DNA of 64,000 nt from Sedimentisphaerales bacterium (GCA_016934515.1 JAFGSR010000077.1:1330-65329); one strand, 5' to 3'; shown: positions 103 to 22,368, counted from the first letter of the stretch. Numbers and translations are program-made. Notes: generated by a model not told the origin, from the letters alone.

Positions 103-196
103 TTTGTGTTCCGAAATTCTAAATACCCAAAAAAATGCACCGCAGGCTGCGATTATTGGCCCTTAATTCAGCTAACACCCATTTGGTTAGTGCGAA

Positions 197-829: not shown

Positions 830-984
830 GTTTTAGTGTGTTACCAATACATTACTCAAAACCGCTATTATACATTAATCATATACCAAAATGCAACAGC
901 ATGTAAACCAATCCACACCGCCATCTTTCGTAAATCATTATATAACAATGTATTACACTTATTGGCGGCCTCGCTTTTGCAAGA

Positions 985-1695: not shown

Positions 1696-1739
1696 TTCAT
1701 CCGCTCCAATTACAGATTCACAGAATCAAAGATTCAAAC

Positions 1740-2984
1740 TCATCCCGACACTGGAACAAATGCCATTTGCTCCTTATACACCCGTTCAATTCTATCGGCC
1801 ATTTTCTCGTGGTCAAATTCTGCCCGGCAAAGCTCACGACCGCCGCTCCCCAGTTTTCTCCGAAGCTCGCTGTCGCTTATCAGTTTCTCCTGAGCCTCAA
1901 TCAGACCAGCCACGTCCCTCGGCTCAATCAAAAATCCGGTCTTACCATTGATAACAATTTCCCGGGCCCCATCCACGTCAAAACTGATCACCGCTTTGCC
2001 GCAGAGCATCGCCTGGCTCAGCGCCCGCGCCAACCCTTCCCGAAGCGAACAGTGCACCAGAACATCCGACGCATGCAGCAATTCCGCCACCCGCTCCGGA
2101 GCCACCAGTCCACTCAGCCGAAAACGCTTCGTCAGACCCGCTTGGGCAATCTGTCTCTCAATTCGACCCCGCCAGGAACCGTCACCGATAAACAACCAGA
2201 TAACGTTTTTGTGTCGGGCCGCAATTTCTTTCGCCGATTCAATAATGAATTCGTGCCCTTTCAGCTTAAACAACCGCGCCACCGTAGCAATCACCACCGC
2301 GTCAGACGGAATATCCAATTCACCCCGCAACTGGGCAATCCGCTCCGCACTCGGATCGCTGAGATAATTCGCAGTTTCCACCCCCGAAAAAATCCGCGTG
2401 AATTTCTCCGAACCACCCACTCCAGCCGCCATCGCCTGATCAGTCATAGCCTGGGCAACAGAAATAAAACAATCCGTCTTAGCCGCCGCACCCCGCTCCA
2501 CAGCTATATAAAATCGATTAACCAGCCACGATTGATAAGGGTGAAACGCCAACCCATGAATCGTATGAATAATCCGCGGCCGCCCGCAAAACGCCGCCTG
2601 CGCCTGACGCATCTTGGTAACCACCGGACAACAAGCTGCACTGTTGCTCGCGCGGATCGCCGCCGCCGCCCGTCGCCCCAGAATGCCCGCCTTTGCCGAA
2701 TGCGTGTGAACAATGTCCGCATCCAGCTCCACCAGCAACTTCTTAATTCGCCCGTAAGCCGCCAAATCATAAAAAGGATTAATCGCCCGCCGCAGACTAT
2801 CAATCTCAATCACCCGATAACCACCCGCCCGCGCCCGATCCATCAACTGCCCCTCCGGTCCCAGCGGCGGCCCCGTAATCAGCGTCACCTCATGCCCCCG
2901 CCGGTGCAAACCCTCACAGGTAAACAGAGTGTTCTCCTGCGCCCCTCCCAGAATCAACCGCGTTATTATGTGAACAATCTTCAT
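1740..2984 (-). CDS. glycosyltransferase family 4 (GT-B fold)
   Basis: 414-aa ORF with a GT4-type N-terminus (MKIVHIITRLILGGAQ) and a C-terminal sugar-nucleotide block (SLREGLARALSQAMLCGKAVISFDVDGAREIV). It lies 44 nt upstream of the deacetylase on the same strand. Confidence 0.85.
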   Translation of the reverse strand: MKIVHIITRLILGGAQENTLFTCEGLHRRGHEVTLITGPPLGPEGQLMDRARAGGYRVIEIDSLRRAINPFYDLAAYGRIKKLLVELDADIVHTHSAKAGILGRRAAAAIRASNSAACCPVVTKMRQAQAAFCGRPRIIHTIHGLAFHPYQSWLVNRFYIAVERGAAAKTDCFISVAQAMTDQAMAAGVGGSEKFTRIFSGVETANYLSDPSAERIAQLRGELDIPSDAVVIATVARLFKLKGHEFIIESAKEIAARHKNVIWLFIGDGSWRGRIERQIAQAGLTKRFRLSGLVAPERVAELLHASDVLVHCSLREGLARALSQAMLCGKAVISFDVDGAREIVINGKTGFLIEPRDVAGLIEAQEKLISDSELRRKLGSGGRELCRAEFDHEKMADRIERVYKEQMAFVPVSG

Positions 2985-3005
2985 GCTTTGTCGATCTCAA
3001 AGTAC

Positions 3006-5843
3006 TCATTTTTCCTTGTAAAGCTCATCCCACCACTGCGGCTGATCCTTCAGGTGCTTATCAAACCACGCCATAATGGTCTTCATCCACAGCTTACGCT
3101 TCTTATAATCGCTGATGCCGTGGTTCTGCCCTTCAACCTCTACCAGCTCAACTTCCCTGCCCAGCAGCTTCAGCGCCGTAAACAACTGAATACTCTCGCC
3201 CGGCGGCACATTAGTGTCCACCGTCCCATGCAGCAGCAACAGCGGCGTATGAATCTTATCCGCGTTAAACAGCGAACTCTGCTTAACAAATAGCTCCGGC
3301 CGACTCCACGGGTAACTCTCCGCCGCCGAAACCGCACAATACAAATAGCCCCAGTACCCCTCGCCCCAATAACTTGAAATCGAACTGATCCCGGCATGAC
3401 TTACCGCCGCCGCAAAAATATCCGTCCGCGTCTGCAGCAACTGCGTCATGAACCCCCCGTAAGAAGCACCCAGACATCCCACCCGCTCCGCATCGACAAA
3501 AGGATGCGCCGCCAAAAACTGCTTCACCCCGTCAATAATTTCATCCGCCACAATAATTCCCCAGTCATTCACATGCAAAGCCGAAAACTCCTGCCCGAAC
3601 CCCGTCGCCCCGCTCGGCTGCAGAACGTAAACCACATACCCCTGCGCCGCCCACAAATTGTAAGGATAACTCCCGTCAAACGACCGGCTGACCGGATTGG
3701 TACCACCGTAATAATAAACCATGCACGGATATTCCTGATCCGCATCAAATTCCGACGGATAATAAATCCGCCCCTCAATCTCCACGTCCCGCTCATTCCG
3801 AAAAGTCCAACGCTCCACCTCACTCAACGTAACATCCCTGTACTCTTTTTCCCCGGGGTCCAGCAGCAGCCGCGGTTCTCGCTTTTTCAACTCCAGCGCA
3901 AAAACCTTCAACGGCATCGCCGCACTGGAACCGGTATATACCGCCCGCGGATAGTTCTCCGCAATAGCCACGCTGCCCAAAACCTCAACACCCGTCTCGA
4001 TTGCTTCATAAGTTTTCGCCGCCAGATCGAATCGGAACAGACGCACATGGGATTTATCAGCCGCCTTGAAATAAATAGCATCTTCCGTTTTCGACCACCA
4101 CCCGCCTTTAATCTGCGGGTCAAATTCACGCGTGATCGGATCCACTTCTTTCGTTTGCAGATCGAATATAAAAGCCTGCGTGTCGTAATTGTTGGAAATC
4201 ATCCCCTCCGGAACATTCTCGCCAATGGTCCCAAAAATCGCCGGCCCGCCCGTAACCAGCAGCTTCTCCCCGTCCGGTGACCACTGTGCACTGGCCGACC
4301 ATTTGTTTTTCCAGAGCGCTTCCACTTGCATCGTCGCAAGCTCCAGCACAAACATTTCCGTTTCTTCGTAAGGCCACTCTTCATATTTCGGCCGCGATTG
4401 GCTGAACAACACCTTCTTACCGTCCGGATTGATACCGTTCAGGTTCGTCGATAGCCGCCCCGCCGTCAACCGCCGCCGCGTTCCCGTCGCCACGTTCAAC
4501 TGATAAAGAAAACTCCTCTCCCGCCAACCCGACTGCCGATCCTCCATCCCCCGCACCCGACGCAGACCGGTCTTTTCCGTCTCGTCCTTCTCCGGCTTCT
4601 CCGTCACACTGTAAATTATAAACGATCCCTCCGGCGACCACGAATATCCACCCATCTCCTTCACATCTTCGATAAGCGCCTTGCTCTGACCCGTCTCCAA
4701 ATCAACCAGCCACAAAGTCTTCCCGCCATTTTCGCTGCTGGTATATGAAAATTTCCTGCCCACCGGCGCCCACTTAATCGACGAAATCTTCATCCCGCCT
4801 CGATAAGTATTCAACAGCGAATTATCCACGCTCCGCCGCAACTCCAGCCACGATTCACTCTTACCTTCCAGTGATTTACAACCCCGCCTCACCAGACCAA
4901 TCAACTCACCGTCCGGCGAAATCGATACCTGCCCCACCCCCGGACTGTGCGCCAGCCGGTCAAGATTCATCTTACTCGCCGGATCAGTTCCCAAAATCAG
5001 GTTGGCACTTTGCCACTGCTGGTCCGGTTTCAGCGACGCCTGTATCTGCCAGTCCTCCCCATTGTTCGGATCTCGCAACGCCCTAATCAACAACAAATGC
5101 TTACCCGTCTCCAATACCATTTTAGCCGTCGCCTTGCCCGGCTTAACGGATTTCTTCTCCTTATCTTCCCCTTCCGCCGTTTTTCCAGCAGCCTCCTCGG
5201 AATCATTTACCGTATCATTTTCATTTTCCCCTTCAGCATCCTTTACGGAATCTTTTTCCGTCGGCTTCTGTGAATTTGCTTTCGTAGCAATCTCCTGGTT
5301 GTCCAGATACGCTTTCAGCAGATGACAACTCTTAACCTCCACCTCGATTTTCATCCACCTCTTGGCTTCCACATAAGCCGCCAGATACACCATCTCCGCA
5401 CTGCCGACCGATTCAATTTCACCCGCTTCCGCCGAATCCTCCACTCCGTTGCTCAACCGCACAAAATGATTCGGATCCTCACTCGCCGCCTGCTCCCGCC
5501 ACTGCAACTTCAAACCCCCGTCCCAGTCAATCTCGTCCCCCGCCTTAGGCCGCCACTCCTTAATTTCAATCGGCTCAAATGCCAACAGGTTCTTCAACTC
5601 ATAAGCCTTACCCTCCAGATTCTTAACCTCATCAAACACCGGCAAAGCCTGCGCCACCGAATCCGTAACCAACCACTCCACAATCGCAATCGGCTCATTG
5701 GGATCCCCAACTTGTTCCCCGCCTTGTTCCGCATTCGAATCAACAACCGCACCGGATACGCCTGCCCCGCACCACAAAACAGCCCAAGCCCCCAGAACTA
5801 CTAAAACCACCATATTCCGCCAACCTGAATAATTGCTTAACAT
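3006..5843 (-). CDS. secreted S9-family serine peptidase (prolyl oligopeptidase / acylaminoacyl-peptidase type) with PD40/TolB-like beta-propeller
   Basis: The nucleophile elbow is GASYGGFMT, with downstream LLLHGTVDTNV (Asp) and GQNHGI (His). PD40-like motifs ISPDGELI, WSPEGSFIIY and WSPDGEKLLV are present. I start the gene at ATG 5843 (MLSNYSGWRNMVVLVVLGAWAV, signal-like) because the ORF-track extension to 6008 is translated repeat DNA. Confidence 0.85.
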   Translation of the reverse strand: MLSNYSGWRNMVVLVVLGAWAVLWCGAGVSGAVVDSNAEQGGEQVGDPNEPIAIVEWLVTDSVAQALPVFDEVKNLEGKAYELKNLLAFEPIEIKEWRPKAGDEIDWDGGLKLQWREQAASEDPNHFVRLSNGVEDSAEAGEIESVGSAEMVYLAAYVEAKRWMKIEVEVKSCHLLKAYLDNQEIATKANSQKPTEKDSVKDAEGENENDTVNDSEEAAGKTAEGEDKEKKSVKPGKATAKMVLETGKHLLLIRALRDPNNGEDWQIQASLKPDQQWQSANLILGTDPASKMNLDRLAHSPGVGQVSISPDGELIGLVRRGCKSLEGKSESWLELRRSVDNSLLNTYRGGMKISSIKWAPVGRKFSYTSSENGGKTLWLVDLETGQSKALIEDVKEMGGYSWSPEGSFIIYSVTEKPEKDETEKTGLRRVRGMEDRQSGWRERSFLYQLNVATGTRRRLTAGRLSTNLNGINPDGKKVLFSQSRPKYEEWPYEETEMFVLELATMQVEALWKNKWSASAQWSPDGEKLLVTGGPAIFGTIGENVPEGMISNNYDTQAFIFDLQTKEVDPITREFDPQIKGGWWSKTEDAIYFKAADKSHVRLFRFDLAAKTYEAIETGVEVLGSVAIAENYPRAVYTGSSAAMPLKVFALELKKREPRLLLDPGEKEYRDVTLSEVERWTFRNERDVEIEGRIYYPSEFDADQEYPCMVYYYGGTNPVSRSFDGSYPYNLWAAQGYVVYVLQPSGATGFGQEFSALHVNDWGIIVADEIIDGVKQFLAAHPFVDAERVGCLGASYGGFMTQLLQTRTDIFAAAVSHAGISSISSYWGEGYWGYLYCAVSAAESYPWSRPELFVKQSSLFNADKIHTPLLLLHGTVDTNVPPGESIQLFTALKLLGREVELVEVEGQNHGISDYKKRKLWMKTIMAWFDKHLKDQPQWWDELYKEK

Positions 5844-5953
5844 GACAAAATCCTTATTTTTTCGAATCCTCAATTTAACTTCACTTTGCCAGGAAATGGC
5901 AATTCTACCCCGATAAAACGAAATTGCAATCAATACCTGATCAGTCATTAGCT

Positions 5954-6010
5954 GTAGGATGGGCTTCAGCCCATGCTGAATTCTGTATCGCCGGCGTCTC
6001 GCCGGCATCC
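5954..6010. repeat. composite hairpin repeat (module A gtaggatgggcttcagcccatgctgaat plus module B tgccggcgagacgccggcg-type palindrome)
   Basis: Module A recurs identically at 9101-9128. Module B, inverted here, recurs at 13746-13768. Both contain perfect short palindromes (tgggct..agccca and gccggcg..cgccggc). Confidence 0.8.
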
Positions 6011-6138
6011 TGAAACACTCAGATCATAAAAAAAACCACCGTAAAAACGAGAAAAACCACACTTAACAATTTTTCTCAAAATTTCTCAAAAAAATTGGTT
6101 AATCGGGAACTTTTCGCGTTTAAAATACGACATTAAAA

Positions 6139-6642
6139 GTGGAAAACAAAATGACCGACGAAAACGCGTTAACCATGGAAAACTGCTGGGCAGATTCGTC
6201 GAAACAGTTGCTGGGTTATCTGTACAGCATCTGCCCAGACCACTCCGAAGCCGAGGACCTGCTCCAGGAGTGCTACCTGCGGGCCTGGCGGAATTGGAAA
6301 CAATTTCGAGGCCACGGCTCCCGGCAGGGTTGGCTCTTTGCTATCGCCCGGCGCGTATTGGCCGATAAATTCCGCCGGAAAAAACTTTCGTTTGTCAATA
6401 ACACCCAGACTTGGGATATTCCGGTTGAAACTGATTCGCAAGCCGAAGACTCCGAATACCTTTGGCACATTATCAATCAACTGCCGCCGGAATTTCAAAA
6501 CATTATAAAATTGCGCTTCGCCGGACAACTTAGTTATGCCGAAATCGCTCAGGCTCTGGATGAACCCATCGGCACGGTTCGCTCACGACTACATCGCGCG
6601 TTAAAAAAAATACGTTCACAGATATTTCAGCCAGACAAATAA
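6139..6642 (+). CDS. ECF-type RNA polymerase sigma-70 factor
   Basis: 167-aa ORF with region 2 (DLLQECYLRAWRNWKQFRG..WLFAIARRVLADKFRR) and region 4 HTH (LSYAEIAQALDEPIGTVRSRLHRALKKIR). The start is GTG 6139 or ATG 6151. Confidence 0.85.
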   Translation: MENKMTDENALTMENCWADSSKQLLGYLYSICPDHSEAEDLLQECYLRAWRNWKQFRGHGSRQGWLFAIARRVLADKFRRKKLSFVNNTQTWDIPVETDSQAEDSEYLWHIINQLPPEFQNIIKLRFAGQLSYAEIAQALDEPIGTVRSRLHRALKKIRSQIFQPDK

Positions 6643-6733
6643 TATGATCCAGCTTATTTCAGAAATTTGTGTTTTTTGTAACTTTTGTGGCATTTTAAAT
6701 CCGTGTAATCCGTGAAATCCGTGGTTAAAACTC

Positions 6734-6757
6734 TTAATTCTCTGTGTCCTCTGTGGC
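6734..6757 (+). repeat. word-doubling module ttaattctctgtgtcctctgtggc
   Basis: Near copies occur at 7483-7516 (same orientation) and 22203-22226 (inverted). It is preceded by tccgtgtaatccgtgaaatccgtgg at 6700-6725. Confidence 0.75.
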
Positions 6758-6786
6758 TTCTTAAAAAATCCGGGAAAGGTTGGACC

Positions 6787-7344
6787 ATGAAGATTAACGA
6801 CGAAATCATCGAACGCCTCGCAATGGACCAGGCCTGCGGTGAACTTACCGCCGACGCCGCCGCCTTGCTCAATGTCTGGCTGGAGAACAACCCCGCCGCC
6901 CAGCAACGAGCTGAAAAAATCACCGCAACCTTTCAACTAACCGAATCGACCGTGCAGCAAAAAGTCAATTCCATCCTCATTAGCACCGCCGCTCCTTCAA
7001 GGCCGATGCCCAGGTTATCAAAGCTCTCCTTATTATTGCCCCGCATTACTCAAGCTGCCATAATCCTCATAGCCTTGACTCTGGGACTCTGCACCGGGCG
7101 TCTATCCAATTCAGTTAACCGGGCCGACCCCACTTCGTCGAAACCGACGGTAATATACCAGATAAATGATGGCCGGCATTCAAATAATTCTCTCATGAAA
7201 AAGAACGGCTTCTGGCACAACTATTTAATCGCGTCAGCCCAACCCAGAAGCTTTCCACCCCCACAAAAATTAATCCAAAACGATAACAACTTCTGGCCCG
7301 ACATCAACCAAATAAAAGAAAACCACAACCACTCAAAAAATTAA
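6787..7344 (+). CDS. putative anti-sigma factor (single-pass membrane protein)
   Basis: It lies downstream of the ECF sigma. The N-terminus MKINDEIIERLAMDQACGELTADAAALLNVWLENNP is typical of anti-sigma N-domains, and one TM segment is present (AAIILIALTLGLCTG). ATG 6787 was chosen because the upstream part of the ORF is repeat DNA. Confidence 0.55.
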   Translation: MKINDEIIERLAMDQACGELTADAAALLNVWLENNPAAQQRAEKITATFQLTESTVQQKVNSILISTAAPSRPMPRLSKLSLLLPRITQAAIILIALTLGLCTGRLSNSVNRADPTSSKPTVIYQINDGRHSNNSLMKKNGFWHNYLIASAQPRSFPPPQKLIQNDNNFWPDINQIKENHNHSKN

Positions 7345-7372
7345 ATATCTTACGCAAAAAGTCCACCTCAAT

Positions 7373-7406
7373 GGGTGGCACCGCCAAGCGCAGCTTGGGG
7401 GTGGTC
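7373..7406 (+). repeat. hairpin module gggtggcaccgccaag-n-cttgggggtggtc
   Basis: An inverted near copy lies at 22369-22401. Confidence 0.75.
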
Positions 7407-7482
7407 TTGCGGAATGGACAACAGCTCCGTAGGGTAGGGCTTGCCCCACCGTTTTATCTTTCGTGTTTTTTCTGACCAGAAA

Positions 7483-7516
7483 TTAAATTCTCTGTGTCCT
7501 CTGAGTCCTCTGTGGC
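7483..7516 (+). repeat. word-doubling module (copy 2, with internal duplication ctctgagtcctctg)
   Basis: It matches 6734-6757 and the reverse complement of 22203-22226. Confidence 0.75.
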
Positions 7517-7593
7517 AAAAATCTTAAATGAAAATCATGACTATCATGTTATCCTGTCTAAAATCTTAACTTCATTACTGAAAGGGAAAACAA

Positions 7594-9063
7594 ATGATTA
7601 AACTAAAACAAAAAATCCTGCTGGTTCTCTCGGCATTGCTCCTGACCACTCTTGCCGGATGTCTCCCCGAAGATAAAGCCGACTTCTCCGACGACGGCTC
7701 GGTGGGCGTTGCCAAAATATCCAACAATTTGTACCTGATCGACGGCCAAAACAATACCGCTAAAATTATCGACCAGGGGGAGCTGCAAATCGGTCCCTCC
7801 ATCACCGCCGATGGCAAAATGATCGCCTATGCCAAAAACGAATTCTTCAAAAATCCCGACCAACTCGACAAACTGCTCCCCGAAGATCAACTAAGCGTTA
7901 TAAAACAATATATCCGTGACATTAGCGCCTTAATCATCGCCGATGGAGGCGTCAACAAAGACAAAATCGAAAAGGGAACATTATTCCCCCGTATGCAAAG
8001 CGGACAATTCGCCGGCCTGGTGTTCAGCCTCATCGCCCTCCAGGCCGACCAGGCTTTGCTCGACCTGCTTAAACCGGACGAATTAAAACTCGCTCAGGCC
8101 GTAAAAGAACAGGGCTTCAAACTCTGCCATCTTTACGTAACCACCCTGGATGGCCTGAATATCCAAAATAAGCAGACCATTTACATTAGCTGCTTCTCCA
8201 TGATTTCACCAAAAATATCACCCGATGGAAAATCAATTGCATATCTAATTCAAGACGATTTTCGGGACGATGACAATATAACCTATAATCTGCATGTAGC
8301 GACTCTCGACGGCAAAATCAAAGCCGCTCAGGTCGCTCCCCACACCGCTTTTGGCGGATACGCCTGGAGCCCCGATAGCACAAAACTTGCATTTATCAAA
8401 AATGAATCTCCAGGACAAAAAGACGATTTTATGTTGGGAACATTATCCGAACGGCAAATATCCGATAAAAATGGGCAATTGGACGTTAAACTTGCTCAGG
8501 ACCGGCAAAATTACAATTCAATAGCAACTCATTATTGTCAGGGTAAAGATACCGAATTGGCCGGGATGGTTTTTTATCCCTGGTTAAGCGCCACTTATCA
8601 CCCCTCCGGACGGATATTCTTCTCCACTACACCCATCACACTACCAGCCGGTGAGTTACAACGCCCGGAAAATATGTCCGTTTTTTGTTATGATCCCCTG
8701 TTAAAAACCGTTACCGACGTGCTGCCCCAGGATATCTCGGCCCAGCTAAGCACCAGTGTTATAAATTTCGAAATCTCCCCGGACGGAAAAAAGTTATTGC
8801 TGCCCCTGCAAAAACAACGTTTCATGATTTACACTTTGGGACAAACCAAATCCATCGAACCGCTCACCGATGCCGACGCCTTCGGCGATGAGAATGCCCT
8901 TAAAATGGCCCCAGCCTTCAAAGGCAATAACCAGATTACCTGCCTCGTCGAAAAAGATTCCCACTTCTTTAAAGACTTCTCTCCCGATTCACTAAAAGAT
9001 CAGGAAATCGCCATCCTCGATACTCAGGGAAAATTCGTCAACCTGTTAACAACTCAACCGTAG
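7594..9063 (+). CDS. lipoprotein with PD40/TolB-like beta-propeller repeats
   Basis: 489-aa ORF with a signal peptide plus lipobox (LLLTTLAGC) and repeated motifs ISPDGKSIAY, WSPDSTKLAF and ISPDGKKLLL. Confidence 0.7.
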   Translation: MIKLKQKILLVLSALLLTTLAGCLPEDKADFSDDGSVGVAKISNNLYLIDGQNNTAKIIDQGELQIGPSITADGKMIAYAKNEFFKNPDQLDKLLPEDQLSVIKQYIRDISALIIADGGVNKDKIEKGTLFPRMQSGQFAGLVFSLIALQADQALLDLLKPDELKLAQAVKEQGFKLCHLYVTTLDGLNIQNKQTIYISCFSMISPKISPDGKSIAYLIQDDFRDDDNITYNLHVATLDGKIKAAQVAPHTAFGGYAWSPDSTKLAFIKNESPGQKDDFMLGTLSERQISDKNGQLDVKLAQDRQNYNSIATHYCQGKDTELAGMVFYPWLSATYHPSGRIFFSTTPITLPAGELQRPENMSVFCYDPLLKTVTDVLPQDISAQLSTSVINFEISPDGKKLLLPLQKQRFMIYTLGQTKSIEPLTDADAFGDENALKMAPAFKGNNQITCLVEKDSHFFKDFSPDSLKDQEIAILDTQGKFVNLLTTQP

Positions 9064-9128
9064 GATGGGTAACTTGTTGGGTCATCCTGAGCGAAATATC
9101 GTAGGATGGGCTTCAGCCCATGCTGAAT
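9059..9128. repeat. two tandem hairpin modules, the second an exact copy of module A
   Basis: 9101-9128 is identical to 5954-5981. 9059-9095 (gtaggatgggtaacttgttgggtcatcctgagcgaa) is a related gtaggatggg-type hairpin. Confidence 0.8.
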
Positions 9129-9163
9129 CTTCTAAAATCTGGCACCTAGCACCTAACACCTAA

Positions 9164-9907
9164 CTAATACCGGACCCACTGCAACGACAAACCGTGCGCC
9201 GGGGCCATCGGCCCCGCTGCGCTGCGGTCCCGCGCCGCCAGAATCTCCTCAACCGCCCTCGGCTGCCAGTAACCCCGACCCACCTCCAGCAGCGTCCCCA
9301 CCATGTTCCGCACCATGTGATACAAAAACCCGTTGGCTTCCAGATCAAAATAAATCCAGTGAAATTTCTTCCACACCGCACACCGCTTCAGCGTACGCAC
9401 CGTAGATTCCCGCCCGTGACCTGCCGAAGCAAAACTCGCAAAATCATGCTTCCCCACCAAATACTCCGCCGCCTCCTGCATCGGCTCCAACTCACAACTG
9501 TGGTAATAATGGTAACAATATTTTGCACTAACCGGAGGCAACTTGTCGTAATTAAAAATCGTGTAGCGGTAGAGCTTGCTCTTCGACGAACCAATCGCAT
9601 CAAAATCATCCCCAACATCAGTAGCTTTCCTAACCCGAATATCCCGCGGCAGCCGAGTGTTAATCGCATGGTGCAGCCGCTCCGAGGGAATCGGCGTGGA
9701 TGATCGAAATGTCGCCACCTGCCCCGCCGCGTGCACCGCGGTGTCCGTCCGACCCGACCCGCGCAACTCCACCGGATGGTTAACCACCCGCCCAATCGCA
9801 CCTTCCATAACCTGCTGAACCGTAACGATCTCCCGCTTCTGCCGCTGCCAGCCGTGATAGCCGCTTCCGTCGTAAGCAATGGTAAGTTTGATTTTACGCT
9901 CAGCCAT
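9164..9907 (-). CDS. truA: tRNA pseudouridine(38-40) synthase
   Basis: 247-aa ORF containing IAYDGSGYHGWQRQ and GSGRTDTAVHAAGQVA (catalytic Asp block). Length is typical for TruA. Confidence 0.9.
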   Translation of the reverse strand: MAERKIKLTIAYDGSGYHGWQRQKREIVTVQQVMEGAIGRVVNHPVELRGSGRTDTAVHAAGQVATFRSSTPIPSERLHHAINTRLPRDIRVRKATDVGDDFDAIGSSKSKLYRYTIFNYDKLPPVSAKYCYHYYHSCELEPMQEAAEYLVGKHDFASFASAGHGRESTVRTLKRCAVWKKFHWIYFDLEANGFLYHMVRNMVGTLLEVGRGYWQPRAVEEILAARDRSAAGPMAPAHGLSLQWVRY

Positions 9908-9914
9908 ATAATGC

Positions 9915-10919
9915 TTACTTCAACAACTCTTCGGCAATCTGCACCGCATTCAGTGCAGCACCTTTGAGCAACTGATCGCCCGCAACCCAGATATTAATAC
10001 CGCGATTGTCCGCAATCGATTCATCCTGACGAATCCGACCCACCAGAATATCACCCTGGCCGGTAGCGTCGATAGGCATCGGAAAATAATTGTTCTCAGC
10101 GTCATCAACAATCGTAACTCCCGGCGCCTGATGGAGTAAGTCCACCACCTGCTCCGGCTCCATCGGTTCGGTGAATTCCAGATTGATACTTTCGCAATGA
10201 GTCCGCAGCACCGGCACCCGCACACAAGTGCAGGTGATGGCGATGGAATAATCATTGAAAATCTTGTGAGTTTCGTGAACCATCTTCATTTCTTCGACGT
10301 TATAGCCGTTTTCGCCGATATTGCTGTCGTGGCTGAAAACGTTGAAGGCACAGGGGTGCTTAAAAACGCTGGGAGTGATTTCTTTGCCGTCGAGAACGTC
10401 GCGGGTTTGTTGTTTGAGCTCTTCCATCGCCTGCCAACCCGCGCCGCTGACGGCCTGGTAAGTGCTAACTACCATGCGCCGCAAGGGGTTAACGCGGTGC
10501 AGCGGCCAAACCGGAACGATGCCGATGATGGTGGAGCAGTTGGGATTGGCGATGATGCCTTTGTGCGTTTGAATAGCTTCGGGGTTGATTTCCGGGATAA
10601 CCAGCGGCACATCGTCCTCCATGCGGAATGCTGAGGAGTTATCCACGACGATGGTGCCTTTTTTAGCGGCGATGGGGGCGAAGTGCTTGCTGATGGAGCC
10701 GCCGGCGGAAAAAAGTGCAATATCAACGTCGTCAAAGCTGTTTTCGGTGAGTTCTTCGATCGTGTAATCGCGGCCGGCAAAGGTCATCGTTTTGCCGGCG
10801 GAGCGGGAAGAAGCGAGAAATTTATAGTTTTCAGCGGGGAAGTTCCGGGTTTCCAGAAGCGCCAAAAATTCCTGACCGACCGCACCGGTTACACCGGCAA
10901 TTGCAACGTTCCAAGACAT
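9915..10919 (-). CDS. asd: aspartate-semialdehyde dehydrogenase
   Basis: 334-aa ORF with NAD(P) fold VAIAGVTGAVGQEF, active-site block IANPNCSTI and a C-terminal LLKGAALNAVQIAE block. Confidence 0.93.
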   Translation of the reverse strand: MSWNVAIAGVTGAVGQEFLALLETRNFPAENYKFLASSRSAGKTMTFAGRDYTIEELTENSFDDVDIALFSAGGSISKHFAPIAAKKGTIVVDNSSAFRMEDDVPLVIPEINPEAIQTHKGIIANPNCSTIIGIVPVWPLHRVNPLRRMVVSTYQAVSGAGWQAMEELKQQTRDVLDGKEITPSVFKHPCAFNVFSHDSNIGENGYNVEEMKMVHETHKIFNDYSIAITCTCVRVPVLRTHCESINLEFTEPMEPEQVVDLLHQAPGVTIVDDAENNYFPMPIDATGQGDILVGRIRQDESIADNRGINIWVAGDQLLKGAALNAVQIAEELLK

Positions 10920-11102
10920 AATCTTTTACCTTTCCGACAGTTACATTAAAAACCGTAATTTTTCAATGGAGCCGATTCAGCGATCGGCATCCCGACTGGA
11001 TTGGTAGTATATCGGAATTTTAACGGAAAAACAAGTGGTTTGCTTGAGACTTCTATGATTGGTTAGGTTTAGAGGGTGAGTATGTTTTTGATGGATTAAC
11101 CA

Positions 11103-11159
11103 CCGCCTGGCAGCGGGGTCTGAATGGTCGGTTGGGGAGCGGAGCGACGCAGCCAGGCG
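11103..11159. repeat. GC-rich hairpin module (9-bp stem ccgcctggc / gccaggcgg)
   Basis: A perfect 9-bp inverted repeat separated by 39 nt, located inside the 827-nt non-coding stretch. Confidence 0.6.
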
Positions 11160-11287
11160 GAAACGTAAGTTCTTATTTTACGTGTTGCAGAATCGGACCC
11201 ATTATTCGATGCGGAGTATCCATTAATGGGACGAAAATGAACGCCGAAATGTGTCCATAAGCGCGACAAAAAGCGTGTCAAAAATGA

Positions 11288-11415
11288 GAAAAAGTTAAAT
11301 TCAGTCAAAAAACCGGGGCGAAAGTTGAGTGGTTTTGGGGTGATTTTTGAAGAAAGTTGGGGCAAACATAGCGGTTTTTTGCAGAAAGTTGCGATTTTTG
11401 AAAAGGGGCTGTCGC
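11288..11415 (+). repeat. four 32-nt phased units each opening with GAAAGTTG (first unit GAAAAAGTTA)
   Basis: Unit starts lie at 11288, 11320, 11352 and 11384. The array is bracketed by a perfect 10-bp inverted repeat, aagcgcgaca (11259-11268) and tgtcgcgctt (11410-11419). Confidence 0.65.
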
Positions 11416-11746
11416 GCTTTTGGCCCGGGGAATCAGCGACCGAAAAATGATGTAAATCCTTATTAGACACTGATTTGCACTGATTTTTATGATTTTAATT
11501 CCTAGTGAGGTGGTGGGGTATAAAATTTTGAATTTTTTCACGCAAAGACGCCAAGACGCCAAGATTTTTAGGCAGGATAATTCACCTGCAACAGAGACAG
11601 ACGCATGATTGACGGAGTGGGGAGCGGGTGGTTATAATGGAGGTAGAATGAAGAATAATTAAGAAAAGATCAAACATTTTCTACTTCCGGTCAGAGATTA
11701 AGCGATAAATGTACCTGACTCTTTTAGCTTGTTGACCCCTTTAGCT

Positions 11747-12559
11747 TCAGGCATTGTTTTTTAGCAGTATTATGAGATTTTGCGGGGTAAGCATCTGGAG
11801 ATCACTTTGTTTCTCGATGAAAGGCTTTATATCTGCGATAACTTTGTTCCAATCGAATTCTGATACCCTGGCGGCGATATGCTGTCTCCAGTTTTCTTCG
11901 GTCAGTTCCGGCCCTGACCAGCCTGTTTGTTTCAGGGCATTATTTAGCAAAAGGATATTGGGTTCCGGCCATTTTCTGTCCGAAAGGTACCACATAAGAT
12001 CATAAACATCTCTGCCCTTGGTATATTTGCGCGTTGCTAAAGCATGTAGTTTTCCCGCCAGCAAAGAGCTTTTGTCATAATGCTGAAGATTTAAAAAACC
12101 ATGTTTCCTGATGATGCTGGTTTCCAGTTTGGCTCCGGTGGGAGGATTACAGTCAATTTCTATTTTGATTGAGATAATTTCAGAACCAAGAGGCGACAGA
12201 TCCAGTTCATAAAGCAAACCGCTGAATTTGATAAATGCTGCTTTTACGGTTTTGGCGGCTTTGGCTTTAATGGTTATTTTATAATCTTCTGCAAGAAATC
12301 TGTCCTTAATTTTTAGCATAAGTTCTTCAAAGTTGTCCCGGATTTTCGGTTCTGTGGTTGAGAAATCCAGGTCTTCGGAAAAACGAGGCATCGAATACAG
12401 AAATCTTAAGGCGGTCCCGCCGACAAATGCCCAGTTCACAAAAGCTCCATTTTCCTGAAGACACTCGAGCATTCTGGCCTGTAGATATTCACGGACAAGG
12501 CATCGGGCAAAATTAGTGTCCCGGATTTTTTCGATTTGCTGTTTTAAATAATCTTTCAT
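11747..12559 (-). CDS. nucleotidyltransferase AbiEii/AbiGii-family toxin (type IV TA / abortive-infection module)
   Basis: 270-aa ORF with the block FVGGTALRFLYSMPRFSEDLDF characteristic of AbiEii. It has a 4-nt ATGA overlap with the upstream partner. Confidence 0.8.
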   Translation of the reverse strand: MKDYLKQQIEKIRDTNFARCLVREYLQARMLECLQENGAFVNWAFVGGTALRFLYSMPRFSEDLDFSTTEPKIRDNFEELMLKIKDRFLAEDYKITIKAKAAKTVKAAFIKFSGLLYELDLSPLGSEIISIKIEIDCNPPTGAKLETSIIRKHGFLNLQHYDKSSLLAGKLHALATRKYTKGRDVYDLMWYLSDRKWPEPNILLLNNALKQTGWSGPELTEENWRQHIAARVSEFDWNKVIADIKPFIEKQSDLQMLTPQNLIILLKNNA

Positions 12560-13188
12560 AGTTCAATACCTTCGCCTTGGTGAAGAACTTTTTCAATATT
12601 ATTCCGGGCCCGGCTGAGCTTGGGAAGTTTAAATCTTTGTACAAACTCGCTTAGTGTCTTTTGGTTAATCCGCTCAAAGTTCTGTAGCCTTAGTTCTTTG
12701 ATAAACTCGATTTCATCACCGCCCGGAGTCAGGTAAATCAGATCTAGAAGTGCTTTTTCGGGGCGGGCGATAAACACCGTTTGTCTGAATTTAAGCTCGA
12801 CTTGCTGATAGCCCCAGAAGTATTTTTTGCTTATATGCCGGAATTCAAAGCGGCCTAACGGAGTTTCAACATTTTGAGGCCTTGCTGTAGTAATGTTTGT
12901 AACAACCGGAACAAATTCCGGGATCATTCCATACCAGGACAGGGCGGAATGCAGGCTTACATACGAAGGCTGCTTTAGACGGTTGGCGATAGTGAATGGT
13001 TCACAGGAGACTTTTCGGTAAGGCTCGGCAAGGGTGTAAAGACCCTTGTGAAGTCTGATAATCTTTCCGCTCTTGACCCACCTGCTGATTTGCAGCCTGA
13101 TTTGGGGCAGATTTTGCCCGGCAGCCAGGAAACTGACAGTAAAAACCGGCAAATCGGAAACTTTTGCTAATAAGTCGGTGTATTTCAT
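12556..13188 (-). CDS. AbiEi-family antitoxin / transcriptional regulator
   Basis: 210-aa ORF with a winged-helix-like N-terminus (LQISRWVKSGKIIRLHKGLYTL). It is translationally coupled to the AbiEii gene. Confidence 0.75.
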   Translation of the reverse strand: MKYTDLLAKVSDLPVFTVSFLAAGQNLPQIRLQISRWVKSGKIIRLHKGLYTLAEPYRKVSCEPFTIANRLKQPSYVSLHSALSWYGMIPEFVPVVTNITTARPQNVETPLGRFEFRHISKKYFWGYQQVELKFRQTVFIARPEKALLDLIYLTPGGDEIEFIKELRLQNFERINQKTLSEFVQRFKLPKLSRARNNIEKVLHQGEGIEL

Positions 13189-15231: not shown

Positions 15232-15285
15232 GGAAAAGAAATTGACAGGGCGGCTGGATGGGAAGGATAATATTTAAGCCTAAAA
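15232..15285 (+). promoter_or_regulatory. sigma-70-type promoter module upstream of the MtaA-like gene
   Basis: TTGACA (15242-15247), an 18-nt spacer and GATAAT (15266-15271), 70 nt before ATG 15340. It has an A-rich upstream tract and is a duplicate of 13355-13409. Confidence 0.55.
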
Positions 15286-15339
15286 TGGTGAAGTGAGTCA
15301 GGGGGATAACAGGTAAGAACAGAAGAAGGGCGGAGGCAG

Positions 15340-16431
15340 ATGGATTCGATAGAGCGATTTCGGTTGGCGATGGAGCACCAGGAACCGGACCGGGTGCCGA
15401 TTGACTATTGGGCGACGTCGGAGATCAACGCCAAGTTGCGGGAGCATTACGGATTTTCCGAGCAGGAGGAGTTGCTGGAGCATTTGGAGGTGGATTTTCG
15501 TTACATTGATGGGCCGAAGTATGTCGGGCCGGAATTTACGATTCGCGAAGATGGGTCGAAGGAGGACCATTTTGGGGTGTCGCGTAAGATGGTCAGTTAC
15601 GGTGAAGGGGGCAAGCAGGGGGCGTACAGTGAGGTGGTGGAGTATCCGCTGGAAGGGGCGGGAAGTGTTGATGAAATCGAGAGCTATGCGAAATGGCCTC
15701 GGGCGGATTGGTTTGATTACGAATGTGTGCGGGAGCAGGCGCGGGCGGCAAAGGCTAAGGGTAAAGTTGTGGTGTTCATGGGGGATCGGTTGAATCGTTG
15801 TGCCCAGTTGAAGCCGGCGATGTATGTGCGCGGGGTGGAACAAATTCTAGTGGATATTATGATAAATCCGGAAATGGCACGTGCTATTTTCGGCCGGATT
15901 GCGGATTTTTATGCGGAATACGCGCGGCGGACGCTGGAGGCAGGGGAGGGAAATATTGATATTTTTTTTACCGGGGATGATTTTGGTACGCAGAACAATA
16001 CTTTTATGTCGGTGGAGAGGTGGCGGGATTTTCTGCGGGAGGGATTTAAGCGGTTTATAGACATCGGTCATGAATTTGATTGCCTGGTATGTCATCATAC
16101 CTGCGGGAGTATATTTAAGCTGTTGCCGGAATTTGTGGAATGCGGGCTGGATATTCTTAATCCGCTGCAGCCGGAAGTGGTGGGGATGGATTACGAGTTG
16201 ATTAACGAGCAGTTCGGGAAGAGTTTGTCGTTTCATGGCGGGATTTCTATACAGAAGACCTTGCCCTACGGCAGTTGCGACGATGTGCGGAATGAAGTGA
16301 AGAATCTGCGGAAAAGCATTGCCCCCGGGGGCGGATATATTTTCTGTACGGCTCATAACATCCAGACGGATACATCGTTGGAAAATGTGGAAGCTTTATT
16401 CAGTGCTTATAAGGAGTATGGCAGGTATTGA
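15340..16431 (+). CDS. URO-D superfamily protein, MtaA/CmuA-like (corrinoid-type methyltransferase fold)
   Basis: 363-aa ORF with N-terminus RFRLAMEHQEPDRVPIDYW. An H-x-C motif (VCHHTCGS) plus a later Cys (GGGYIFCTAHNI) match the MtaA-type Zn triad. Confidence 0.75.
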   Translation: MDSIERFRLAMEHQEPDRVPIDYWATSEINAKLREHYGFSEQEELLEHLEVDFRYIDGPKYVGPEFTIREDGSKEDHFGVSRKMVSYGEGGKQGAYSEVVEYPLEGAGSVDEIESYAKWPRADWFDYECVREQARAAKAKGKVVVFMGDRLNRCAQLKPAMYVRGVEQILVDIMINPEMARAIFGRIADFYAEYARRTLEAGEGNIDIFFTGDDFGTQNNTFMSVERWRDFLREGFKRFIDIGHEFDCLVCHHTCGSIFKLLPEFVECGLDILNPLQPEVVGMDYELINEQFGKSLSFHGGISIQKTLPYGSCDDVRNEVKNLRKSIAPGGGYIFCTAHNIQTDTSLENVEALFSAYKEYGRY

Positions 16432-16546
16432 CGAGGGGGGCAGCGAATTGGCGGGGGGAGGATTTTCCAGGAGCAGCTAAAAAACCCAGGGTAAGCCTTA
16501 CAGGTGTTCAAAATGCTCTTTGGAGGGGGAAAAAATGAAAAAGGAT

Positions 16547-16575
16547 TTGACCGGGGTGGGAAAGTGGGGTATAAT
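16547..16575 (+). promoter_or_regulatory. near-consensus sigma-70 promoter upstream of the TetR gene
   Basis: TTGACC (16547-16552), a 17-nt spacer and TATAAT (16570-16575). It is preceded by gaaaaaggat, as in the other two modules. Confidence 0.6.
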
Positions 16576-16676
16576 GAATGGTGTTCAGTAAGTGAATATT
16601 GGTTATTTGGAGTTTGGAGCGTGGTATCGGTTATCGGTTATCAGTTATTTGGTGATGGTGGTGGCAGGGTCTTTAA

Positions 16677-17309
16677 ATGGGAACGGTAGAGCGTCGGCAG
16701 CGGGAGGCGGGGCGTCGTCGGGAGAGTATTCTGGCGGCGGCGCGGAAGGTGTTTTGGCAGCAGGGATATGCGGGGACGACGATACCGCAAATAGCTGGGG
16801 TAGCTGAACTTGCGCCCGGGACGATCTATTTGTACTTTCCCAGTAAGGATGCGCTTTATGTTGAGCTGCTGATGGAAGGGTATGATATTCTGCTGGGGCG
16901 GCTGAAGGAACAGGTGGCGGCTGGGGGGTCGGCTTATGAGCAGGCGGAGCGGTTGATTGAGGTGTTTTTTGGCTTTGCGCGGGAGTATCCGCACTATTAT
17001 GACATTATTTTCTTTTTGCTGCAGCGGGATAATACGGCCCGGTGGCAGATTAAACTGCCGGGGGATCAGATAGCAAAGCTTATGGAAAAGGAGGAGCAAT
17101 GTAAGCAGGTTGCGGCGCAAATCCTTGATAGGGTTGAGTTTGGGGATGGTGCGGAGCGGGCGGCGGCGGTGGAGGCGGCCTGGAGCATGTTGGCGGGGGT
17201 GGTGCTTTATAAGCGAAAAGAGGCAGATTTCAGGCAGGTGTGTGAGCAGGCGAAGAAACTGCTGCTGGCGGCGGTGTTTATGGAAGAAAGGATGAAGGCT
17301 GAAGGTTGA
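16677..17309 (+). CDS. TetR/AcrR-family transcriptional regulator
   Basis: 210-aa ORF with the HTH block ILAAARKVFWQQGYAGTTIPQIAGVAELAPGTIYLYFPSKDALY. Confidence 0.85.
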   Translation: MGTVERRQREAGRRRESILAAARKVFWQQGYAGTTIPQIAGVAELAPGTIYLYFPSKDALYVELLMEGYDILLGRLKEQVAAGGSAYEQAERLIEVFFGFAREYPHYYDIIFFLLQRDNTARWQIKLPGDQIAKLMEKEEQCKQVAAQILDRVEFGDGAERAAAVEAAWSMLAGVVLYKRKEADFRQVCEQAKKLLLAAVFMEERMKAEG

Positions 17310-17360
17310 GCGTGAGGAATGTAAATGACGGTTTATCAGTATTGTAAATGATAAAGCTGA

Positions 17361-17389
17361 TTGAAATATAGGTGTCAATGTACTAGAAT
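17361..17389 (+). promoter_or_regulatory. candidate promoter for the PlsA/Ger-like fusion gene
   Basis: TTGAAA (17361-17366), a 17-nt spacer and TAGAAT (17384-17389), in the 263-nt gap between the TetR gene and ATG 17573. Confidence 0.45.
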
Positions 17390-17572
17390 AGTTCAGCCTG
17401 ATCCGGTTGGATTTTGGATTGAGGTTCAAAAAGTCTATTTGGCAGGATTAGGCAGTGGCTGAATCTATAAGCTAATCAAGGCTGATTATTATTGCGCTGG
17501 GATTTTATCAGTTAATGGCTAAGCTTTTGATAGTCAGTCGTCTTTTTGAATAAAGCGAAAGGTGAAATCAAC

Positions 17573-20500
17573 ATGACCAGACTGAATGGTAAGCGTTCTA
17601 TTGACGAGAGCAGGTCGTTTGAGCCGGTTTTAAGTAAGATACCGGGAGATGGGCCGTTGCATTTGGGGATTGATATTGGGTCGGTAAGTTGCAAGGTGGC
17701 GGTTTTAACTCATGTTCGTTCAGTGTGTTATCTGAATTATCAGCGGACGCACGGGCGGGGGATTGAGACGGCGCGGGCGATGTTGTCGGATTTGTTTGGT
17801 CAGATTGCCCCGGACCGGATTGCGACAATGGTGGGGACGGGTAGCGGTGGTCGGGCGTTTTGTGAGTTGCTGAAGCTGGATTTTGTGAATGAGCTGATTT
17901 GTCAGTCGGCGGCGATACGTCATTTGCGGCCTGAGGTGCGGACGCTGGTGGAGATGGGAGGGCAGGACAGCAAGGTGATTTTCCTGAGTGATCCGGCAGA
18001 GCAGCAGGCGAGCGGTGATCAGCGGGAGATGGTGGATTTTGCGATGAATACGAACTGTGCGGCGGGGACGGGGAGTTTTCTGGATCAGCAGGCGACGCGG
18101 CTGGGGGTTCATATTGAGGAGGAATTCGGGCAGTTGGCATTGCAGAGCGAGACGCCGCCGCGGGTGGCGGGGCGTTGTTCGGTGTTTGCCAAGAGCGATA
18201 TGATTCATCTGCAGCAGCAGGCGACGCCGGTGCATGATATTGTGGCGGGATTGTGTTTGGGTTTGGCGCGGAATCTGAAGGCGTCTCTGTGTCAGGGTAA
18301 GAAGGTGGTTAAGCCGATGGCGTTTTGCGGCGGGGTGGCAGCGAACGCGGGGGTGGTACGGGCGTTGGAAGATGTGTTTGAGTTGGGTCGGGGCGGATTG
18401 ATTGTGCCGGACGAGCATGCGTTGACGGGTGCGATTGGAGCGGTGCTGATGCAGATGCGGCAGGGAGCCGGGGCCGAGAGTACGCAGGAGCCGCGGGTGA
18501 TATTGAGTAAGCTGGACGAGTATATTAAGCAGAACCGGACGGTGGGTCATCGGCTAGAGAGGTTGAAGCAGCCAAGCAATGGGACGCCGGAGAGCCGGGT
18601 GCATAAGGAGATTCTGGAGGAGGTGCGGGTTTCGGGAGAGAAGATTGTTGCGTATCTGGGGATCGATGTTGGTTCGATCAGTACGAATGTGGTGGTGATG
18701 GATGAGCTGCAGCGGGTGCTGAGCAAGGCTTATTTGATGACGGCGGGTCGGCCGCTGGAGGCGGTGAAGCAGGGTTTGGAGATTGTGGAGCCGGATGTGA
18801 AGGGGCTGGTGGAGATTCGGGGGGCGGCGACGACGGGGTCGGGGCGGTATTTGACGGGTGATTTTGTGGGGGCGGACCTGGTGATTAACGAGATTACGGC
18901 ACAGGCGACGGGTGCGGCGCTGGTGGATCATGAGGTCGATACGATATTTGAGATTGGAGGTCAGGATTCGAAATATATTTCGCTGGAAGACGGGGTGGTG
19001 GTTGATTTTGAGATGAATCATGCCTGTGCGGCGGGGACGGGGAGCTTTCTGGAGGAGCAGGCGGAGCGTTTGGGGATGAGTATCAAGGGAGAGTTTGCCG
19101 AGGAAGCGTTTTCGTCGTCGTCGCCGATTAAGCTGGGTGAGCGGTGCACGGTGTTTATGGAATCGGATTTGTTGAGTTATCAGCAGCAGGGAGCGGAGCG
19201 GCCGGATTTGGTGGCGGGGTTGGCGTATTCGATTGTTACGAATTATCTGAACCGGGTGGTGAGTCATCGCAAGATAGGTCAGAAGATTTTTTTCCAGGGT
19301 GGGACGGCGTTTAACCGGGCGGTGGTGTCGGCGTTCGAAGCGGTGACGGGTAAGTCGATTATTGTGCCGGACCATCATGAAGTGACGGGGGCGTTGGGAG
19401 CGGCGGAGTTGGCGCGGCGGCACATGAGCCAGGTTGAAATGGAAGCTGGGGGCGAAAAGGTGGAGAGCAGTTTTCGGGGGTTTGATCTGACGCAGTTGGA
19501 GTATAAGATCAGGACCTTCGAGTGTACCCATTGTCCGAACAACTGCGAGATCAAGGAAGTGACGATGGCGGGAGCGGAGCCGTTGTTTTACGGGAGTCGA
19601 TGTGATCGTTACAACGTTAAGAAGGATAAGGTGAGTGTGGGGGACATTGCGGATTTGTTTGCGGAACGGCAGAAGATGCTGGAGAGTTTTGCGGGGCTGA
19701 AAGGTAAGCGAGGGGCGGCGGGTGAATTGGCGAAGGAGAAGGAGCAGCTCTCTGGGAGTACACAGAAAGGTGGCACCCAGCGTCGGACGGTGGGGATTCC
19801 GATGTGTTTGAGTAATTATCAGTATTTGCCGTTGTGGGGTAGGTTTTTGGGTGAGTTGGGATTTGAGGTGGTGCTTTCGGGGCGTTCGTCGAAGTCGGTG
19901 ATTCATCAGGGAGTGGAGGCGGTGGTGTCTCAGCCTTGTTTCCCGGTGAAGGTGGCGCACGGGCATGTGTTGGAGTTGGTGAAGAAGGAGTTGGATTTTA
20001 TCTGGCTGCCGAGCATTGTTTCGATGGAGGCGAATTACAAGGAGAATGTTCACAATCAGTTGTGTCCTTATGTGCAGACAATTCCTTACCAGGTGCGCAC
20101 GGCGCTGAAGGCCAAGGGGATCGATCTGGATGGGGCGAAGAATCATCTGATAGATTTGCATGTGCGGTTTATGGATGGTTTGAAGCAGTTGCGTCGGACG
20201 CTGAAGCCTTTGGCGGAGAAGTTTGGGGTGAGTCAGAGGCAGATTAATCGGGCGTTAGATGAGGGGCTGAAGGTTCAGAGGGCGTTTGAGGAAGCTTGCC
20301 GGGAGCGGGGGCGTGAGATTCTGGATGGATTGGCGCCTGGTGAGAAGGCGTGCGTGATAGTTTCGCGGCCTTACAATGGTTGCGATCCGGGAGTGAGTCT
20401 GGATTTGCCACGGAAGCTGCGGAAGATGAATGTGTTGTCGGTGCCGATTGATTTTCTGGATCTGGACGCGGCGAACGTGATTGAGCCGGAGCTGCAAAGT

Positions 20501-22075: not shown

Positions 22076-22202
22076 CGGGAGACGTGGTATGTTTTTTGGC
22101 AAAATAGAATTATAATGACGAATTAAGAAACCAGACCCGGCTTCGCCAGAGCGCTTCGCCGCGGCGAGACAATGACGAATGACGAAGTTCGAAATTAATT
22201 TT

Positions 22203-22348: not shown

Positions 22349-22368
22349 TGGTTGTTCGGGATAACAGC

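Follow-up and report, generated by a model that had tools for sequence, protein, structure and literature searches.

A reversal of silent-site strand composition within an intact asd gene shared by three Sedimentisphaerales lineages

Strand skew is a standard means of locating the origins and termini of bacterial chromosomes and of dating inversions. We examined a 64,000-nt stretch of a roughly 66-kb contig from a Sedimentisphaerales bacterium (GCA_016934515.1 JAFGSR010000077.1:1330-65329; hereafter the window), in which asd, the gene for aspartate-semialdehyde dehydrogenase, lies between truA and a gene-free stretch (coordinates in Table 1). Among 8,000 homologues of the Asd protein, the nearest named ones are from metagenome-assembled genomes (MAGs) of Sedimentisphaerales and Phycisphaerae from sediments, and an exact look-up of the window's own Asd sequence found no record in public assemblies. 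A first-pass annotation, made from the sequence alone, had claimed that the balance of G and C on the plus strand flips abruptly at about nt 10,230 inside asd and that synonymous codon choice switches there in mid-gene. Both claims stand: the seven 60-nt plus-strand hand counts are all exact on recount, the change point is computed at nt 10,225, G and C reverse at third positions and at four-fold degenerate sites at codon 232, and asd is, as stated, a single intact open reading frame (ORF) on the minus strand with both of its Pfam domains. The switch in asd is real, it is sharp (about 20 nt), and it is common to three lineages by descent.

The position of the switch is well defined. Nucleotide 10,225 is the window-wide minimum of cumulative GC skew and also the second-strongest change point in a binary segmentation of the whole window, with a plus-strand GC skew of -0.25 over positions 1-10,225 and +0.31 over 10,226-31,319. 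Within the gene, the sense-strand third-position fraction G/(G+C) rises from 0.26 to 0.70 at codon 232 with a log-likelihood ratio (LLR) of 17.8, and the interval within 2 log-likelihood units defines the junction given in Table 1. The largest LLR in 20,000 permutations was 11.4 (p<=5e-5); the change-point detection that the annotation had proposed as a check places a step in asd by window-wide segmentation, and within the gene the step is significant by permutation. Four-fold degenerate codons ending in G or C occur in a G:C ratio of 18:57 in codons 1-231 and of 25:8 in codons 232-334 (Fisher p=1e-6), and the switch is therefore not due to amino-acid content; at identical conserved four-fold codons where the window has G, the related locus L004 has C. 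The junction lies at the 5' edge of an invariant block, CVRVPVLRxHCESINLEF, and codon 233 is the first of seven consecutive G-ending codons. When 137 genes of 250 codons or more, drawn from the window and 12 related loci, are compared, asd has the strongest internal change point (related loci are designated here by L numbers), and in quartile profiles of 36 window genes asd alone changes sign internally.

The bias follows the DNA strand rather than gene orientation, as the annotation had maintained on the basis of a few genes. Left of the switch, plus-strand GC skew at third codon positions (GC3 skew) lies between -0.3 and -0.6 whichever way a gene points, and in the 15-27 kb region it lies between +0.5 and +0.8, again in both orientations, with +0.68 in a minus-strand SpoIIE-like gene; the skew of intergenic DNA matches the same blocks. 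On either side of the switch, about 72% of coding sequence lies on the G-rich strand, so that most of it points away from the switch. GC3 skews in the window reach 0.8; silent-site skews of 0.7-0.8 greatly exceed those of ordinary bacteria, and skew in the window is nearly as strong as that of animal mitochondria. In truA and GT4 the skew at first codon positions has shifted together with that at third positions, which shows that they have long resided under the present polarity. The combined composition of first and second positions was useful as such a slow clock for truA and GT4 only, the Asd protein being too conserved. Pooled quartile skews along the window genes are 0.18, 0.14, 0.14 and 0.10, and a gene-by-gene 5'-to-3' gradient from C to G was rejected for want of a trend in the profiles of the 36 genes.

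The same junction is found in other assemblies. A change point at codon 232 is present in the window, in L001 (ENA ERZ24794648; Asd 98% identical in amino acids) and in L002 and L003 (Asd 92% identical), with Fisher p values for the switch of 1e-6, 3e-8 and 1e-8 in the window, L001 and L002, respectively. L002 is ERZ23498442, and L003/L006 is the GenBank MAG record GCA_030634605.1; since L003/L006 are identical to L002 across asd, the junction recurs in two independent assemblies, not three, both made from samples other than that of the window. The window, L001 and L002 diverge from one another at 12-31% of four-fold sites, L001 and L002 differ from the window by 5-11% of nucleotides, and sliding identity among the three clade members showed no recombination break. 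A Logan contig (3,181 nt) of the probable source run covers positions 8,500-10,556 with zero differences, no branch and a uniform depth of 9.4. The annotation's suggestion of a strain-level assembly chimera has to be given up in view of the two independent assemblies and the source-run contig.

Related loci provide the ancestral arrangement against which the switch can be read. Below, a gene or gene part is called C-type or G-type according to which base prevails at silent sites of its sense strand. The order asd-truA-GT4-PIG-L-HisPhos is kept in L167/L086, L007 and L009, the adjacency of asd and truA is conserved far beyond the phylum, and the order is ancestral. In the nearest switch-free relatives (L166, L004, L167/L086 and L007; Asd 81-85% identical in amino acids), asd, truA, GT4 and PIG-L are all C-type, with four-fold skews of -0.35 to -0.84, and truA in particular has -0.63 to -0.84 in L167 and L004; from codon 232 onward the window clade is entirely G-type (+0.33 to +0.79). 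Codons 1-231 of asd, with four-fold GC skews of -0.52, -0.71 and -0.75 in the window, L001 and L002, are of the same type as the nearest switch-free relatives, and codons 232-334, at +0.52, +0.33 and +0.35, are opposite in type to the same codons in L004, L166 and L167. Loci that are uniform throughout exist in both forms, C-type in L004, L166, L167, L007, L009 and L092 and G-type in L008 and L087. As uniform-skew relatives have the same gene order and orientation, the polarity past codon 232 flipped without local rearrangement. The annotation had reasoned that a simple inversion would have broken asd, and the unchanged downstream order in switch-free relatives bears this out; an inversion breakpoint was rejected on the intact gene and on its conserved order and orientation. 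An inverted asd paralogue as the cause of an inversion was likewise rejected, there being no second asd copy or remnant within the 64-kb window. Because two adjacent parts of one gene share every inversion, opposite silent polarity in them means either a change of mutational pressure in place or a homologous joining.

Table 1. Features of the 64,000-nt window, in nucleotides counted from its first position
Feature	Position	Strand	Description
asd, aspartate-semialdehyde dehydrogenase	9915-10919	-	Intact 334-codon ORF; PF01118 E 3e-38, PF02774 E 7e-47
asd codons 1-231	10226-10919	-	Sense strand C-rich at silent sites
asd codons 232-334	9915-10225	-	Sense strand G-rich at silent sites
Junction	10218-10238		Codons 228-234 of asd; change point nt 10,225
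truA	9164-9907	-	Directly downstream of asd; sense-strand G-type, four-fold skew +0.71
Block A	1-10225		Plus strand C-rich, skew -0.25
Block B	10226-31319		Plus strand G-rich
Gene-free stretch, 827 nt, upstream of asd	10920-11746		Plus strand G-rich (+0.24), like asd codons 1-231
AbiEii/AbiEi toxin-antitoxin pair	11747-13188	-	Low GC3, skew near nil
Opposite (G-to-C) step and C-rich block	31320-35916		Step at 31,319 in the gap after the ribonucleotide reductase gene
Block D	35917-64000		28 kb with almost no strand skew; GC3 skew about -0.3 to +0.3 in genes of either orientation

The switch is set in a window that is a patchwork of at least four skew blocks. Measured per 1 kb, GC skew lies between -0.2 and -0.4 in the first 10 kb, between +0.2 and +0.46 from 11 to 31 kb and between -0.26 and -0.33 from 33 to 36 kb, and it is close to 0 from there to the end of the window; binary segmentation places further steps at 15,231, 26,761, 31,319, 33,118 and 35,916. 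Block A contains, in order, HisPhos, PIG-L, GT4, an S9 peptidase, an extracytoplasmic function (ECF) sigma factor, an unnamed ORF, a PD40 protein, truA and the 3' part of asd. The set from the S9 peptidase to PD40 (3006-9063) stands between truA and GT4 in the window only; L167, L086, L007 and L010 are without these genes, and L009, in which truA and GT4 are spaced by about 2.4 kb, had no detectable homologue of them. In L002, PD40 adjoins truA and the contig ends there. Immediately upstream of asd, in the gap, every relative departs from the gene order of the window. The 827-nt gap itself gave no Rfam match and no tRNA in Rfam and tRNA scans, and L001 shares it up to an internal repeat, where the L001 contig ends; the toxin-antitoxin pair that follows is probably a recent mobile insertion between asd and the remainder of block B. 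Block B begins with a weak skew (+0.14), which gives way after 15,231 to a very strong one (+0.39; GC3 skew +0.7 to +0.8) over 15,232-26,761, and its core of PlsA-like, Tes-like, Maf, DUF192, SpoIIE and ribonucleotide reductase (RNR) genes has the same order in L172, with opposite polarity there. After 31,319, a near-neutral symporter gene is followed by a C-rich block at 33,119-35,916. The opposite step at 31,319 falls where gene order ceases to match that of L172, whose PlsA-to-RNR cluster has the opposite polarity; most of the other steps therefore look like scars of rearrangement or acquisition. Block D may be a recent acquisition, may be half-way through adjusting to a changed polarity, or may be replicated equally often in either direction.

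To evaluate whether the two sides of the junction still mutate differently, third-position differences among the window, L001 and L002 were polarised by a three-taxon majority rule, and the per-site rates were converted into equilibrium GC3 skews. The implied equilibrium is -0.39 (95% interval -0.70 to +0.10) for codons 1-231 and +0.49 (+0.23 to +0.71) for codons 232-334 together with truA; the step is +0.84 within asd alone (P=0.025) and +0.94 against truA (P<0.001). The step is +1.1 in the L001 lineage (P=0.02) and +0.85 in that of the window (P=0.013). When each side was simulated under the process of the other, both simulations were rejected (pooled P<0.001). The N-terminal part of asd remains at the maximal C-type value in L002 (-0.75), and PD40, which lies across the junction from it, has a skew of -0.46 in L002 and -0.50 in the window despite 32% four-fold divergence. 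The closest relatives of block B genes (a 1,509-aa PlsA-like protein 74% identical, a radical-SAM protein 81%) limit this test to asd and truA. These results are predicted by a boundary that has been maintained and not by a scar relaxing uniformly, and the different substitution regimes thus slightly favor maintenance over decay. Along the lineage of the window, asd and truA have moved as one unit toward sense-strand G and PD40 has not, which suggests an operon-wide offset, perhaps linked to transcription, or a boundary that recently moved to the right; the N-terminal part of asd may no longer be protected in this lineage.

The reading that we tentatively prefer, at rather less than an even chance, is an in-place and maintained boundary of strand-specific mutation pressure, most simply a change in replication direction with the sign of an origin. 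Under this reading asd would straddle two stretches of chromosome mutated with opposite strand polarity; the boundary would have formed in place in the common ancestor of the window, L001 and L002, which make up a small Sedimentisphaerales clade, and would have been kept since that ancestor rather than merely decaying. Its simplest physical form would be a fixed point at which replication changes direction, and a plus strand that is C-rich on the left and G-rich on the right would fit diverging forks. That replication direction, not another strand-specific process, sets the polarity, and that something fixes the boundary at this spot in asd, we infer. Several points weigh against it. We know of no mechanism that fixes a fork-direction boundary inside a gene, and scans of the window found no DnaA-box cluster, unwinding element or origin-linked gene near the switch. 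With the opposite step only 21 kb away and 28 kb without skew beyond, a purely replicative reading needs many boundaries per chromosome, and the other steps in the window lie at gene edges or synteny breaks, as rearrangement scars would. The regime test is small (63 and 108 third-position changes), and its polarity was assigned without a usable outgroup. In L002 the step is +0.29 and not significant (P=0.27), with ambiguous polarity if the root lies on the L002 branch. The N-part regime is about strand-symmetric (loss of C 0.089 and of G 0.078 per site) and not a mirror image of the other side; in the window lineage this part shows 18 losses and 3 gains of C across codons 29-222, and it is compatible with the regime of the other side (simulation P=0.27).

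Alternatively, the junction could be the scar of a homeologous recombination in the clade ancestor that joined a C-type 5' part of asd to a G-type 3' part with its downstream genes. The donors would be related lineages replicating the locus in opposite directions, the crossover would lie in the most conserved part of asd, and the contrast would have decayed since. We consider this possible, if somewhat unlikely. Known processes suffice for it, both parental types exist for the syntenic cluster within the order, as listed above, and the junction abuts the invariant CVRVPVLRxHCES block, a plausible homology anchor. The gene-order break upstream of asd in every relative fits imported upstream DNA anchored in asd, where the gap holds a multicopy repeat followed by the AbiEii/AbiEi pair; the clade carries PD40 as an extra gene downstream of truA, and the window all of the S9-to-PD40 set; blocks of differing skew make up the window as a patchwork; and the N-terminal part is visibly losing C in the window lineage. 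However, near the junction alleles of opposite type are only about 72% identical in nucleotides and match without interruption over about 11 nt at most, so homologous exchange would be very inefficient. No donor for either part emerged from identity to 119 homologues, shared derived residues, four-fold identity or partition trees. Both parts have the same nearest relatives at similar identity, and separate amino-acid trees place them in the same poorly resolved neighborhood without discordance, at low power for the 103-codon part. One shared regime would be expected after such an event and two are seen, and the N part in L001 and L002 is at maximal C-type, with PD40 of L002 unrelaxed after about 0.3 changes per four-fold site. 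The annotation's recombination tract from a donor replicated in the opposite direction is thus possible, in that both parental types exist, but it finds no support in phylogeny or in the substitution regimes. A fusion of two co-occurring strains at a shared k-mer during assembly has in its favor that the window comes from a metagenome-assembled contig and that the junction lies in a conserved motif; given its recurrence in L001 and L002, each well diverged from the window, the unbranched source-run contig at even depth, and the failure to find a uniformly typed close allele among the 8,000 homologues, we regard this as having next to no probability. The chromosome's own origin, or its terminus if the class has reversed skew polarity, is improbable. 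The switch is a sharp, orientation-independent change from a C-rich to a G-rich top strand at the cumulative minimum, as at oriC; a gene-free stretch of lower GC with phased repeats lies 0.7-1.5 kb away, and coding DNA on each side points predominantly away from the switch. A terminus, which can move in place and fall inside a gene, would by the usual rule show the reverse change, from G-rich to C-rich at a cumulative maximum, and the excess of coding DNA on the G-rich strand does not suggest reversed polarity in the class. No dif (XerC/D) consensus is known to us for Planctomycetota, and the stretch of asd that holds the switch encodes a conserved motif. Against an origin, the DnaA box TTATCCACA with at most one mismatch has 14 hits in the window against 13.7 expected, none of them in 10,920-11,746, and dnaA, dnaN, parAB and rnpA are absent from the window. 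The switch is in coding DNA 0.7 kb from the gap, the opposite step follows at 21 kb with more at 33.1 and 35.9 kb and a skew-free 28 kb, the repeat in the gap is multicopy in the metagenome, unlike a unique origin, and a 64-kb window from a genome of several Mb has a prior chance of only a few percent of including the origin or terminus. The nearby replication landmark that the annotation had considered is thus possible, but an ordinary oriC is unlikely, given no DnaA-box cluster or origin-linked genes and the further steps at 15.2, 31.3, 33.1 and 35.9 kb. Finally, the effect could be specific to the gene or operon, through codon selection that differs between protein domains or through transcription-linked deamination from an internal promoter. 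The drift of asd-truA in the window lineage, in which the oppositely oriented PD40 took no part, implies some effect of the transcription unit, and weak-skew relatives prefer C-ending codons at baseline. Nevertheless, the polarity on each side runs for kilobases through both orientations and intergenic DNA, and window genes have no general 5'-to-3' gradient. In L008 the N part is G-type throughout, and in L004 the C part is C-type throughout, so neither half of asd is bound to its present codon set. Neighboring genes and spacers largely refute this explanation, and we hold it to be very improbable. The rest of the probability falls to none of the readings listed here.

A broader form of the maintained boundary, which we think unlikely, is that Sedimentisphaerales, and perhaps Phycisphaerae generally, have many fixed sites per chromosome at which the polarity of a very strong mutation pressure flips in place without regard to gene boundaries, so that DNA synthesis or another strand-specific process would regularly start or end at many sites rather than at a single origin and terminus. 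A possible example would be synthesis that starts within the asd transcription unit from a transcript or R-loop as primer, where the RNA turns G-rich, and the asd junction would then be one such site caught in three lineages.

Comparison with known systems helps to define what is unusual about the locus. Lobry and Grigoriev reportedly used cumulative-skew analysis and found switches of GC- and TA-skew polarity at bacterial origins and termini. Like such switches, that in asd is an abrupt, orientation-independent swap of the G+T-rich strand, strongest at silent sites and with the minimum sign of an origin. It differs from them in lying inside an intact conserved gene devoid of DnaA boxes or origin-linked neighbors, in sharing its 64 kb with at least three more steps and a skew-free block, and in GC3 skews of 0.7-0.8, far above the usual. 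In Borrelia burgdorferi and similar genomes the strand sets synonymous codon choice and protein composition shifts along with it. The window resembles these in its strand-set codon choice and in first-position skew that tracks the third position, but a gene in B. burgdorferi has one codon set and asd carries both, joined at codon 232. Mosaic genes assembled from diverged alleles are known from pbp of Streptococcus pneumoniae and penA of Neisseria. As in these, asd would be an intact gene with two parts of different histories joined in frame at homologous positions; unlike these, its parts are indistinguishable at the protein level and have no visible donor, they differ only in silent-site strand composition, and they go on evolving under different regimes. 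Local skew reversals have been described as marks of past inversions of genes or segments (for example PMC6220195, 'Gene inversion potentiates bacterial evolvability and virulence'). Most other steps in the window, which lie at gene edges and at the 31.3-kb synteny break, fit such a change of orientation relative to replication; asd differs from them in that its order and orientation are those of uniform-skew relatives and the boundary cuts an intact ORF, and an inversion therefore cannot be the cause of its switch.

Where skew is this strong, stretches of DNA record mutational polarity at the resolution of single genes, and inversion cannot account for a polarity boundary that runs through an intact housekeeping gene in conserved gene order and has persisted in separate lineages. 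If the boundary is maintained, it would mark a change in replication direction, or in another strand-specific process, at a site lacking origin features, and as one of several such places within 64 kb it would challenge the view that chromosomes of this group have a single origin and a single terminus. A recombination scar would record an exchange between alleles about 28% apart and provide a new, composition-based view of old recombination that protein trees miss. Either way, caution is indicated when origins are called or inversions dated from skew in such genomes. A survey tool for skew analysis has been described (PMC7717575).

Skew boundaries that disregard gene edges are not unique to asd in the order. 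In the relative L173, whose PlsA-like protein is 74% identical in amino acids, the third-position G fraction falls from 0.71 to 0.49 at about 5,100-5,300 (LLR 43); in this comparable step, skew goes from strong to none close to the 3' end of the PlsA-like gene, which belongs to a conserved gene cluster. Weaker third-position change points occur in two other genes of the window, that for a papain-like/dockerin protein at 53,680-58,035 (codon about 142, LLR 14.1) and that for the class II ribonucleotide reductase at 27,681-30,884 (last approximately 43 codons, LLR 10.8). Block D consists mostly of polysaccharide-related genes and lies next to blocks with GC3 skews of 0.5-0.8. Extreme skew appears to be a trait of only some lineages of the order, since large circular metagenome contigs of more distant Sedimentisphaerales (L169-L171; GC 0.41-0.44) have weak skew; with their arbitrary starts, these contigs are uninformative on which strand leads. 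In L169 and in part of L170, genes of both orientations favor C over G at sense-strand four-fold sites as a baseline.

Summed over contigs of the source run, the depth of the repeat in the gap upstream of asd, at approximately 11,180-11,580, reaches as much as 727, compared with about 9.4 in its flanks, and the repeat is represented by many contigs of 110-150 nt that are about 10% divergent, which together identify it as a multicopy dispersed element in the source sample; the L001 and L002 contigs end at or before it. Hairpin-forming short intergenic repeats resembling repetitive extragenic palindromes (REP-like) occur at 5,954-5,981/9,101-9,128, 13,441-13,490/13,688-13,737 and 13,539-13,581/22,309-22,351, and one family is a 28-nt exact direct repeat. 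Hairpin repeats were also considered as end points of inversions and rejected, as the inverted pair at 5,958-6,015/13,738-13,795 does not match the skew steps. The annotated ORF start of the S9 peptidase probably overruns one of the REP-like copies.

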